This document shows positions 59,078-64,000 of a stretch of DNA of 64,000 nucleotides, piece after piece. The notes beneath the pieces were generated by a model, which worked only from the letters and a program-made list of their open reading frames with translations, had not been told where the DNA came from and made no database searches. Origin of the DNA: Candidatus Eiseniibacteriota bacterium (GTDB taxonomy: Bacteria > Eisenbacteria > RBG-16-71-46 > JABDJR01); assembly GCA_963783375.1 (NCBI GenBank), contig CAWANH010000028.1, positions 384,001 through 448,000 of the forward strand, read 5' to 3'. The translations under genes and the position numbers were made by a program. Numbering within the stretch: position 1 is the stretch's first letter; the number at the start of each line of letters is the position of its first letter.

Positions 59078-60270
59078 ATGAGACGAATCGTCCTGATCCT
59101 GACCGTTTCGGTCTTCGTTCTCCTGTTGGGGTGGCGCCTGGTCGACCACCTCCGTTCCTCCGGGGGGGATTCCCAGGGGCGCTCGGGCCGGCCCGCGGTC
59201 GCGGTCACCGTGGCCGAGGTCTCGGTGGGGCCGATCCAGGACGTCCGGCTCTTCACCGGCACCGTGTTCCCCCAGTACCGATACCTCGTGGCCACCAAGG
59301 TGCCCGGCCGGGTGGTGGCGCTCGGAAAGCGGATCGGCGACCGCGTGCGGGCGGGCGAGGAGATCGCGCGGCTCGACGACGCCGAGTACCGCCAGGCCGA
59401 GGCCGAGGCCCAGGCCAACCTGGACATCGCCAAGGCCGGCCTGGAAGAGGCCCGGGCGTCCCTGGCCCTGGCCGGGAAGGAGATCGCCCGGACGCGGTCG
59501 CTCCGGGAACGCGATCTCATCTCCGACGCCGACGTGGACAACGCCAGCTCCCGCTTCGACGCCCAGAAGGCGCGCACCCAGCTCGCCGAGGCCCAGGTGA
59601 GCCAGCGCGAGGCCGCCCTGGAGGCCTCCCGGATCCGCTGGGCTACACCCGGCTCAAGGCCGCGGAACCGGGGTACGTGGGCGAACGCCTGGTGGACGAG
59701 GGGGCGCTCCTCCCGGTGAACGCGGCGGTGGTTTCCGTGGTCGGCCTGGACACGGTGTTCGTCCGGGTCTCGGTGATCGAGCGGGACTACGGTTCCATCC
59801 GGCCCGGCCAGACCGCCGAGGTGGAGGTGGACGCCTTCCCCGGCCGGCGCTTCTCCGGCCGCGTGACCCGGCTGGCGCCGGTCCTGAAGGAGGAGTCGCG
59901 GGTGGCCGAGATGGAGGTCGTGGTGCCGAACCTCGGCCACGAGCTCAAGCCCGGCATGTTCTCCCGGGTCCGGGTGGTGATCTCCTCGGAGACCGAGGCC
60001 CGGTCCGTGCCGGCGGCGGCGGTGGTCCGGCGGGACGACCACGACGCGGTGTACATGGCCGACGAGGCCGAGGGGGTGGCGCGTTACGTGCCGGTCACCC
60101 TGGGCATTCACGCCGGGTCCCGGGTGCAGATCCTGGAGCCGAACCTCGAGGGTCGGGTGATCACCCTGGGCCAGCACCTCCTGGAGGATGGGAGCCCCAT
60201 CCTCCTCACCGCGTCCCACGGGCCGGCCTCGGACACCACCCGGGCGCCCGGCGCCGGTGACGCGCCGTGA
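59078..60270 (+). CDS. RND efflux periplasmic adaptor (MFP), frameshift ~59638
   Basis: GDRVRAGE, coiled-coil hairpin, DAFPGRRF, LKPGMF. Confidence 0.88.
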
Positions 60271-63200
60271 GCCTCGCCCGGGGGCCCATCCAGCGCCCGA
60301 TCCTGACCACCATGATCTATCTCATCGTGATCACGGTGGGGTTGGTCTCGTTCTTCCGCCTCTCCATCGATCTCATGCCCGAGATCACCTTCCCCACCAT
60401 CAGCATCCGCGCCCAGTACGGGAACGTGGGGCCGGAGGAGATGGAGGACCTGGTCACCCGGCCCATCGAGGAGGCGGTGGCCGCGGTCCAGGGGGTCGAG
60501 GAGATCAACTCGGTCTCCACCGAGGGGAACAGCTCGGTCCGGGTCTCGTTCGATTGGGGAGCCGATCTGGACGTGGCCGCCAACGACATCCGCGACCGCA
60601 TCGACCGGATCACCGGCCGCCTCCCCGAGGACATGGACCGCCCCACCATCCGGAAGTTCGATCTCTCCGCCTTCCCGGTCATGATCCTCGGGGTGTCGAG
60701 CGACGTGAACCCCCTCGATCTCCGGCAGATCGTGGACGACCAGGTGAAGTACCGCCTGGAGCGGGTGGCCGGGGTGGCCGCGGTGGACATCTGGGGCGGT
60801 CTGACCCGGGAGATCCACGTCGACCTGGACGCCGACCAGGTGAAGTCCCTGGGGCTCTCCACCTCGGACGTCCTGGACGCCCTGAACCGGGAGAACCAGA
60901 ACATCCCCGCCGGCACCGTCCAGACCGGGAACCTCGACGTTCTCATCCGGACCCAGGGCGAGTACCTGAGCCTGGACGAGATCCGGAACACCGTGGTGGC
61001 CATCCGTGAAGGCTCGCCCATCCGCATCTCCGATTTCGCCCGGGTCGAGGATTCCTGGGAGGAGGTCACCCGCCGGGTGCGGGTCAACGGCAAGCCCAGC
61101 CTTCGGCTCTCCATCAACAAGCAGTCCGGCGCCAATACGGTGGAGGTGGCCCAGGCGGTGAAGGCGGAGATGGCCCGGATCAACCGGGACATTCCCCAGA
61201 TCCAGCTCCTCCCCCTGATCGACACCTCCACCTACATCGAGAACTCGATCCGGAACGTGGGGCGGGCCACCGCGGTGGGCGGCATCCTGGCCGTGGTGAT
61301 CCTCCTCCTGTTCCTTCGCAACGTCTCCAGCACGGTGATCATCGCGACCGCCATTCCGGTCTCGATCATCGCCACCTTCGGACTGATCTACTTCGGCGGG
61401 TTCACCCTGAACCTGATGACCTTCGGGGGCCTGGCCCTGGGGATCGGCATGCTCGTGGACAGCGCCATCGTGGTCCTGGAGAACATCTATCGATTGCGGG
61501 AGAGCGGGCTCTCCCCCCGGGACGCCGCGCTCCAGGGGACCGAGGAGGTGGGAAGCGCCATCGTGGCCAGCACGTTGACCACGGTGGTGGTGTTCCTCCG
61601 GTGGTGTTCATGCGGGGGATCTCGGGGATCTACTTCCAGCAGCTCGCCTTCGTGGTGGCGTTCTCTCTCCTCTGCAGCCTGGTGGTGGCGCTGACCCTGG
61701 TGCCGATGTTGAGCGCGCGGTTCCTCCGGTTCCGGGGAGCGGTGGCGGGCGGATCCCGCCGCGGCCCGGGCCGGGTCTACGACGCCAGCGAGGCCGCGTT
61801 CAAGGCGGTGGAGCAGGGTTACGGCCGGGTATTGCGGCGGGCCCTTCGTCACCGCCGCATGGTGATCCTCTCCGCGCTGGCGCTCTTCGTGGGGTCGGTG
61901 TTGCTGCTTCCCACCATCGGGGTGGACTTCATGCCCGCCTCCGACGAGGGCGAGGTGCGAGTGGATCTCGAGATGGCGGTGGGGACGCGCCTGGACGTGA
62001 TGGACCGGATGACCCGCTCGGTGGAGGAGATCGTCCGGGCCCAGGTGCCGGAACTCCAGTCCATCCTGGTGAGCGTGGGAGGCGGGGGATGGCGGGCCTC
62101 CGGCGGACACACCGCCAACATCCGGGCCACCCTGGTTCCCCAATCGGAGCGGCGCCGGAGCAGCGAGGAGATCGCCAACGCGCTCCGTCCCGCGCTCTCG
62201 TCGCTCCCCGGGGTCACCGTCCGCACCCGGGCGGGACAGGGCCTCTGGATCCTCCGGATGGGGCAGGGGGACGGCGACAACCTGAGCCTGGAGATCCGGG
62301 GATACGACCTGGACACCGCCCGGGAGCTGGCCCAGCAGGTACGGGCGGCGGTGGCCGAGGTCCCCGGGGTGAGCGACGCCCGGATCAGCCGGGAGGAGGG
62401 ACGGCCGGAGGAGGTGATCCGGATCGACCGCCAGAAGGCGGCGGACCTGGGGTTGAGCGTGTCGCGGATCGGCGAGGCCCTCCGCACCGCGGTGGGAGGA
62501 ACCTACGCTTCCAACTACCGCGAGGCCGGAAAAGAGTACCGGATCATGGTGCGGCTGAACGAGGACGACCGGCGCGACCTCTCGAACCTGCTCGACCTCA
62601 CCGTGACCAACGACCGGGGCCGTCCGGTGGTGCTCCGGAACGTGCTGGTGTCGGAGCCGCGGACGGGTCCGGTGCGCCTGGAGCGGAAGGACCAGGAGCG
62701 CACGGTGTTCGTCTCCGCCAACTTCACCGGCCGCGACATGGGGTCGGTGGTGGGCGACGTTCGCGAGGCGATCGGCCGGATCCCGGTGCCCAAGGACTTC
62801 TCGGTGATCATCGGCGGCGACTACGAGGAGCAGCAGAAGGCGTTCCGGGAGCTGTTGCTGGGACTGATCCTGGCCCTGGTCCTGGTCTACATGGTCATGG
62901 CCGGCCAGTTCGAGTCCCTGCGCGACCCGTTCGTGGTGCTCTTTTCGGTGCCGATGGCGGTGATCGGGGTCGCGCTGGCCCTGGTCCTGACCGGGATCCC
63001 GTTCAGCCTGAACGCCTACATCGGCTGCATCATGCTGGGCGGAATCATCGTGAACAACGCGATCCTCCTGGTGGACTACACCAACCTGCTCCGGCGCCGC
63101 GACAAGCTCCCCCTCCACGACGCCATCACCGTGGCCGGCTCCCGCCGGCTCCGCCCGATCCTCATGACCACCTTGACCACGGTTCTGGGGCTCCTGCCGT

Positions 63201-63382
63201 TGGCCTTCGGGGCCGGCGAGGGCGGCGAGGCCCAGGCCCCCCTGGCCCGGGTGGTGATCGGCGGCCTCACCACCTCCACCCTGGTCACCCTGGTGCTGAT
63301 CCCGGTGGTCTACTCGCTCTTCGAGGAGGGTTGGCGGGGACGGCGGAGGAAGGCCGCCGAGGACTCGTCCCAGGTGGCATGA
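60267..63382 (+). CDS. RND efflux permease (AcrB/SwrC family), frameshift ~61598
   Basis: [41 protein letters not shown]. Confidence 0.92.
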
Positions 63383-63413
63383 CGGTCCCGGCGGCCCCGT
63401 TCCGAGAAACCCA

Positions 63414-63442
63414 TTGAAGAGGACCGGATCGGTCATTATACT
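63414..63442 (+). promoter_or_regulatory. Sigma70 promoter of the cysK leader
   Basis: TTGAAG(63414)-17 bp-TATACT(63437). Confidence 0.75.
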
Positions 63443-63477
63443 TTGTGCATCAGCACCCAGACGGGAGAATCCGAACC

Positions 63478-63600
63478 GTGATCCGTCCGACCCACCACAT
63501 CAACTGCTGCTGTTGTTGCCCGCATTGCGGGTCGTGGGCCGGTGCGTCCGCCGGATCGAGTGATCGGACGTCTCGAACGGGAGACCGCTCCCGGACGTAG
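63478..63600 (+). CDS. Polycysteine leader peptide (40 aa) MIRPTHHINCCCCCPHCGSWAGASAGSSDRTSRTGDRSRT
   Basis: GTG start after GGGAG; five tandem Cys codons TGC TGC TGT TGT TGC plus a sixth; lies between the promoter and cysK. Confidence 0.78.
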   Translation: MIRPTHHINCCCCCPHCGSWAGASAGSSDRTSRTGDRSRT

Positions 63601-63625
63601 ACGAAGCGAAACTCCCGAGGAAGCC

Positions 63626-63657
63626 AGGCCCGCGGCGAAAGCCGGCGGGCTTTCTTC
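63626..63657 (+). terminator. Attenuator/terminator hairpin before cysK
   Basis: AGGCCCGC-GGC-GAAA-GCC-G-GCGGGCTT followed by a U-rich tail TTTCTT. Confidence 0.65.
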
Positions 63658-63720
63658 GTACCCCCCGCCGGCCTCGCCCATCCCGACTGCCGTTGCGGCA
63701 GCCCCCAAGGAGAACCAGAC

Positions 63721-64000
63721 ATGGCGAACATCCGACGCAATATCACCGAAGCCGTGGGGCGAACGCCCCTGATCGAGCTCTCCCGTTTCGCCCCCGATGC
63801 CGGCGCGCGCATCCTGGGCAAGGCGGAGTTCATGAACCCCCTGTCCAGCGTGAAGGACCGGATCGGGGTGGCCATGGTCGAGGCGGCCGAGCGCGAGGGC
63901 CGCATCCAACCCGGAACGAACGTCCTGGTCGAACCCACCAGCGGCAACACCGGGATCGCCCTGGCCTTCGTGGCCGCGGCCCGGGGCTATCGCCTCGTCC
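63721..64000 (+). CDS. cysK: Cysteine synthase A (5' part, truncated by window end)
   Basis: Manual translation: [17 protein letters not shown]...[16 protein letters not shown]...[20 protein letters not shown]; RBS AAGGAG. Confidence 0.95.

Follow-up and report, generated by a model that had tools for sequence, protein, structure and literature searches.

Terminator attenuators governed by a leader peptide are exemplified by trpL of E. coli and hisL of Salmonella, with the thr, leu, phe and ilv leaders as further classical cases, and cysteine is a gap in this textbook list. Two other modes of control are relevant to cysteine genes: the T-box, which reads tRNA charging, and Rrf2-family (CymR-like) proteins, which are repressors acting at initiation. 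The classical attenuator scheme, comprising a leader ORF, codons for the product and competing hairpins, is outlined in the introduction of a 2020 mycobacterial study (10.1101/834739), which presents attenuation by cysteine uORFs as previously undescribed. The mycobacterial polycysteine short ORFs (Ms5788A, Rv2334A before cysK1-cysE; the 'Cys ribulon') are leaderless; according to the same study, Ms5788A acts translationally by hiding the next ribosome-binding site, and the mechanism at other loci is left open. Cys leaders have also been predicted for Mycobacterium, Propionibacterium and Bifidobacterium, where no conserved terminators accompanied them (PMC1262725), and PMC13236596 and PMC13096801 cite the mycobacterial case only. 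Our literature search, conducted mostly outside subscription journals, returned no published Cys leader with a terminator and an antiterminator, nor any Cys leader from Eisenbacteria.

The locus described here lies at the 3′ end of the window, the whole 64,000-nucleotide stretch of a Candidatus Eiseniibacteriota contig that was analysed, and all of its features are on the forward strand. As in trpL and hisL, the leader ORF is preceded by a ribosome-binding site of its own and contains consecutive codons for the end product, the predicted layout is protector/antiterminator/terminator, and the biosynthetic operon (cysK-cysE) lies directly behind. The locus differs from them in its amino acid, cysteine, and its host, a member of an uncultured phylum, as well as in a leader ORF that spans most of the antiterminator, with its stop 26 nt short of the terminator, and in a predicted antiterminator made of a single long nested hairpin (~105 nt). 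The attenuation mechanism itself is familiar. With the mycobacterial type the locus shares a Cys-codon run in a short first ORF before cysK-cysE, and the occurrence of several cysteine/sulfur operons each with its own leader. Unlike that leaderless type, its start codon lies 36 nt past the −10 box of a predicted promoter and has a ribosome-binding site, the run is located at codons 10-14 of 40, and a conserved intrinsic terminator and antiterminator are predicted, with only short pairings at the cysK start. The T-box and S-box RNAs of Firmicutes cysteine genes likewise place a terminator/antiterminator switch before amino-acid genes, whereas sensing here is predicted to occur via a translated ORF, and 63300-63800 matched no Rfam family at threshold (two microRNA matches fell far below their cut-offs, with none other to E 10). 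Rrf2-family repressors have the same target gene, cysK, which is predicted here to be controlled by a ribosome-driven RNA switch instead.

An earlier note on this DNA had proposed a sigma70 promoter, a 40-codon ORF with mixed TGC/TGT Cys codons and a GAAA-tetraloop hairpin with a U-rich tail ahead of cysK, and at the level of sequence all of these parts were recovered. The only sigma-70-type promoter-like site within 62000-64000, against 0.1 expected from shuffles, was found at 63414-63442 (−35 at 63414-63419, 17-nt spacer, −10 at 63437-63442), with a predicted transcript start at ~63449. Hexamer pairs with 17-18 nt spacing were also identified by eye 5′ of the leaders in five related genomes (G001, G002, G020, G033 and G068). 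A purine-rich ribosome-binding site (63463-63469), which has a purine-rich counterpart at comparable distance before the leader start in G001, G002, G020 and G033, precedes the leader ORF (63478-63600; GTG start at 63478, 40 codons, TAG stop). The automatic ORF list gives this frame as 51 aa from GTG 63445, a start that we rejected because it precedes the predicted transcript start, lies 2 nt past the −10 box and is absent in G002. Codons 10-14 (63505-63519) are five consecutive Cys codons (TGC, TGC, TGT, TGT, TGC) and represent the predicted control codons; a sixth Cys codon (codon 17, 63526-63528) is predicted to be a non-control codon. At the fifth position of the run (63517), G002 and contigs of runs X3 and X4 have an Arg codon. 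The putative terminator hairpin (63627-63651) consists of segment 3 (63627-63636), the GAAA loop (63637-63640) and segment 4 (63641-63651); it is G+C-rich with one bulged base, has a predicted energy of −19.4 kcal/mol and was not among the calls of a simple terminator scan. Its U-rich tail (63651-63660) is imperfect, being broken by C, and is purer in G002, G001, G033, G068 and G020. The cysK ribosome-binding site (63708-63713) and the 5′ part of cysK, encoding cysteine synthase A (63721-64000), complete the locus, with cysE (serine O-acetyltransferase) next, outside the window.

The same region is represented on contig C18, which duplicates ~13 kb at 98.4% identity and carries an intact 334-aa cysK copy (TIGR01139, 449 bits versus a cut-off of 351); cysE behind cysK was identified via its G001 counterpart (TIGR01172, above cut-off). 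The window's contig contains frameshifts in cysK (just past the window) and cysE, none of them present in C18, and the RND efflux genes 5′ of the leader (59078-63382) are split over several frames. These frameshifts and split genes are probably assembly errors or strain mixture. A long-read artefact as the origin of the leader was rejected, because contigs from two public sequencing runs, which may be the source sample, match letter for letter (zero mismatches over 63453-63641 and 63300-63617), and the C18 duplicate carries the Cys run too. Across both strands of the 4.7-Mb assembly, runs of five Cys codons occurred only in the leader and its C18 duplicate. Eight control codon pairs reached 0 to 9 five-codon runs each in the same assembly, so the Cys run alone is rare, not impossible, and the weight lies on its position before cysK. 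No second Cys leader was found by rule in this genome (five short-ORF candidates, with only the leader and its C18 duplicate passing); trpE and sat are internal to operons that have no leader, no second attenuator was found there, and the genome, 97% complete, gave no match to the acetolactate synthase large subunit (ilvB, TIGR00118).

Alternative structures, whose folding the earlier note had suggested, were predicted at equilibrium for truncated RNAs left free by a ribosome of assumed footprint, moved codon by codon. Folding yielded both a 10-bp antiterminator and a protector. Segment 2, the predicted antiterminator 5′ strand (63531-63544), pairs through 63531-63540 with 63627-63636 in a duplex of −19.5 kcal/mol, which was equalled in 0/60 shuffles, and nested inner stems (63542-63625) close the long antiterminator hairpin. 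Segment 1, the predicted protector strand (63484-63495), pairs with 63534-63544 when the leader is untranslated (duplex −16.3 kcal/mol), and with this pairing in ribosome-free RNA the terminator probability was 1.00. With the ribosomal A site on codons 3-15 the terminator probability fell below 0.1, and it was ≥0.9 from codon 16 onward. This switch point shifted by at most two codons when the footprint was varied from 10 to 18 nt and the temperature set to 20 or 37 °C. The fifth Cys codon fell outside the antitermination range only with the 18-nt footprint. The sixth did so in every setting, as a ribosome there covers the antiterminator strand, and it is missing in L219 (a metagenomic copy described below) and G068; it is probably not a control codon. 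Binding of upstream RNA to segment 3 amounted to −15.5 to −16.7 kcal/mol with the ribosome on the Cys codons, in comparison to −4.4 kcal/mol with the ribosome at the stop and −5.5 kcal/mol without a ribosome, and dinucleotide shuffles gave −6.9 ± 2.4 kcal/mol (0/60 as strong as observed). These predictions support a ribosome on the five Cys codons leaving the antiterminator strand free. In read-through RNA, a strand 3′ of the tail (63664-63672) can pair with segment 4 (63641-63649), a pairing with the terminator 3′ arm that may hold the switch in its open state or make the start of cysK accessible. Similar bases occur at 63664-63672 in G001, G002 and L219, and the strand is kept in the genus.

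Taken with the recurrence described below, the locus is real and conserved and very probably a cysteine-sensing transcription attenuator, and we assign a probability of roughly 85% to a classical trp-type element that reads charged Cys-tRNA. When cysteine is plentiful, the ribosome would clear codons 10-14 and both cover and unzip segment 2 (63531-63540) en route to the stop at 63598; the terminator segments 3 and 4 would then pair and transcription would stop near 63655-63660. When cysteine is short, the ribosome would wait on codons 10-14 with segment 2 just beyond its footprint, such that segment 2 could pair with segment 3 before segment 4 exists and polymerase would continue into cysK-cysE. 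If the leader were untranslated, segment 1 would sequester segment 2 and the terminator would form. Within this scheme, we infer transcription-translation coupling, leader translation, the stall and termination at the imperfect U tail. The earlier note had read the locus as cysteine-sensing transcription attenuation, and that reading gains from the predicted antiterminator/terminator fold and the conserved Cys runs; its sixth Cys codon (63526) probably plays no part in control.

The same note had pointed to Cys-run uORFs before cysK in relatives as a further check. To determine their occurrence in the phylum, 206 genomes, all from one class, were searched with CysK as the query and the upstream regions were read. 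Leaders with a Cys run and a predicted terminator were found before cysteine/sulfur genes at 26 loci in 24/206 genomes from 7 of the phylum's 18 families; 30 loci had been tried by rule, four of which gave no terminator or no start, and the leader start codons are the analyst's choice among candidate starts. Among the best-scoring matches, which represent 67 distinct cysteine-synthase-like places, 18 had a Cys leader (17 genomes). Paralogues of 451-458 aa had none (0/14). The window's design is common to six loci (the window's own, in genome G000, and those of G001, G002, G033, G068 and G020). A second design was observed in family f10 (12 loci: L131, L132, L133, L136, L139, L147, L149, L153, L154, L155, L159 and L190), whose cysK genes were assigned by 37-57% N-terminal identity plus length, with no family model. 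The f10 leaders have no ribosome-binding site, an ATG that by eye lies 9-10 nt past a −10-like hexamer, a Cys run followed by Arg codons, and a different, longer terminator; from their sequences, they look leaderless yet carry a terminator.

Searching the phylum by pattern gave 72 matches in 44/206 genomes; reversing the pattern as a control gave 42, so by itself the pattern has weak specificity. A rule that ignored the downstream gene passed 19/58 Cys-codon runs in loci L162-L211. The genes behind these 19 were cysK (9), cysM-like (2, both below the family cut-off), sat (2), cysG (2), an ssuE-like reductase (1, then an sfnG-like monooxygenase, below cut-offs) and beta-carbonic anhydrase (3, two called by Pfam and one by translation likeness). 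Six loci (L177, L181, L193, L198, L210 and L211) were omitted from the fold test, none of which passed the gene-blind rule; L211 narrowly missed it, at −14.6. A metagenome pattern scan returned two matches, of which L219 is a true copy before cysK; the other, L220, was rejected as a chance match. Ten of the named cysK relatives from other phyla (the best 80 of 597, a sample and no survey) were flagged by script, with two true Cys leaders among them. Both are mycobacterial (L082 and L098) and belong to the published leader type, with the Cys run at the ORF end.

Conservation of the switch itself was more varied. Binding of the segment 3 type was matched by at most 3/60 shuffles in 20/26 loci, in a test that takes the best Cys codon and is biased toward the observed value; the remaining six failed against shuffles, with G070 the worst (47/60). 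Median binding over the 26 loci was −11 to −12 kcal/mol on the last four run positions and ~−5 kcal/mol three to four codons later, which on this folding places the antiterminator strand directly behind the Cys run in otherwise unlike sequences. An equilibrium switch on the full leader was predicted for about 6/26 loci (G000, G001, G033, G020 and G070, and G068 at one codon). In most other loci the terminator prevails at all ribosome positions at equilibrium, and the model therefore relies on folding order, antiterminator first. Three loci, G002 (the nearest relative), G067a and G157, show a weak terminator even in ribosome-free RNA, and in G002 it is weak at the stop too. A protector restoring termination without translation, predicted in the window, was not predicted in these three. 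Covariation was thin over the six aligned loci: the terminator core is invariant, and terminator and protector each show one two-sided change. The protector core is kept in most of the six, with its two-sided change in G020, and G068 disrupts several aligned pairs. The distance from leader stop to hairpin was 16-41 nt across the 26 loci of unlike sequence.

The alternative that survives best, which we nevertheless consider improbable, is that the leader senses cysteine and the main control is exerted on cysK translation, by hiding of the ribosome-binding site as in mycobacteria, or through Rho, the hairpin being a weak or secondary terminator. The broken U tail of the window would fit this, as would the capture of 63664-63672 by segment 4 in read-through RNA and the ability of 63666-63670 to pair with the first cysK codons and of 63681-63683 to pair with its ribosome-binding site; the proven mycobacterial case is also translational (10.1101/834739). 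However, 26 loci retain a G+C-rich hairpin followed by a U-rich tail, and the predicted antiterminator strand aims at the terminator 5′ arm, not at the cysK start. Furthermore, pairing around the start of cysK involves only short stretches, and the spacing between leader stop and cysK ranges from 104 to 221 nt.

The make-up of the leaders bears on a second alternative, in which the ribosome controls the terminator and its stall comes from the Cys-rich nascent peptide (through metal, sulfide or an oxidant in the exit tunnel) or from Arg codons, not from Cys-tRNA. The run begins at codon 9-13 in 24/26 loci, a depth that suits tunnel contact, and many leaders have an Arg codon just after the run, with relatives reading Arg at 63517. 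We rate this reading slightly below the previous one, as the residues flanking the run vary widely between families, the run itself ranges from 2 to 7 codons and the predicted switch point comes directly after it. In addition, the leaders favour the rare codon TGT, a bias that points to decoding rather than to the peptide: TGT makes up 21/34 Cys codons in the six leaders identified via cysK alone, versus 876/7301 (12%) in the long ORFs of the window's own genome. Rare codons sharpen attenuators. The corresponding count over all 26 loci (90/120) is biased, since the search pattern demands TGT, and was set aside.

The least probable alternative is that the ORF encodes a small protein binding metals or thiols, with the hairpin serving as an ordinary fixed terminator that only lowers cysK expression. 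It could draw on the six Cys with Cys-x-x-Cys spacing at the end and on Canestrari et al. (10.1101/834739), who leave a small-protein role open for some mycobacterial leaders. However, the peptide had zero Pfam or NCBIfam matches and was absent from the protein collection by exact look-up, leader length (22-41 aa) and tail sequence are variable, and L219 and G068 have no sixth Cys. The residues that differ in G002 are encoded in an RNA loop (63584-63587) that varies among relatives while its stem is kept, and a fixed terminator needs no antiterminator stronger than shuffles.

Read as a trp-type attenuator, the locus provides a clean, short test case with sharp predictions as to which codons count and which ten base pairs switch, and the leaders serve as labels assigning genes of an uncultured phylum to sulfur supply. 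At a wider level, we see evenly balanced odds that Eisenbacteria run a multi-operon cysteine regulon by classical terminator attenuators, built to two or more unrelated RNA designs and used in place of an Rrf2 repressor, and that the leader-linked beta-carbonic anhydrases are COS-hydrolysing enzymes feeding cysteine synthesis; this reading draws on gene context, one protein's likeness and an abstract on a fungus. A Cys leader with a terminator precedes a beta-carbonic anhydrase gene in L204:585-1352 (G070), L205 (G071) and L196:2555-3325 (G144). Among the matches of the G144 protein is a group with solved COS and CS2 hydrolases as members (E 7e-33), although this group ranks sixth of nine and is outscored by ordinary carbonic anhydrases. 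In the abstract of PMC10880591, a fungus uses COS as a sulfur source through such enzymes. The sequences thus hint at sulfur scavenging by the leader-linked enzymes, and if the regulon reading is true, membership would mark the beta-carbonic anhydrases behind the three leaders as sulfur-scavenging.

Two tandem Cys leaders were observed within a single sulfate-assimilation cluster in G065 (L192:906 and 3739) and in G067 (L203:1389 and 3942), and in both genomes one leader precedes the siroheme genes while the other precedes sat. The second G065 leader has seven Cys codons and no start codon within 25 codons by rule. At cysK loci without a leader, Rrf2 was present in 5/9 scanned upstream ORFs, from five genomes. 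In these (L007, L009, L010, L014 and L015), the Rrf2-family gene adjoins cysK either directly upstream or divergently.
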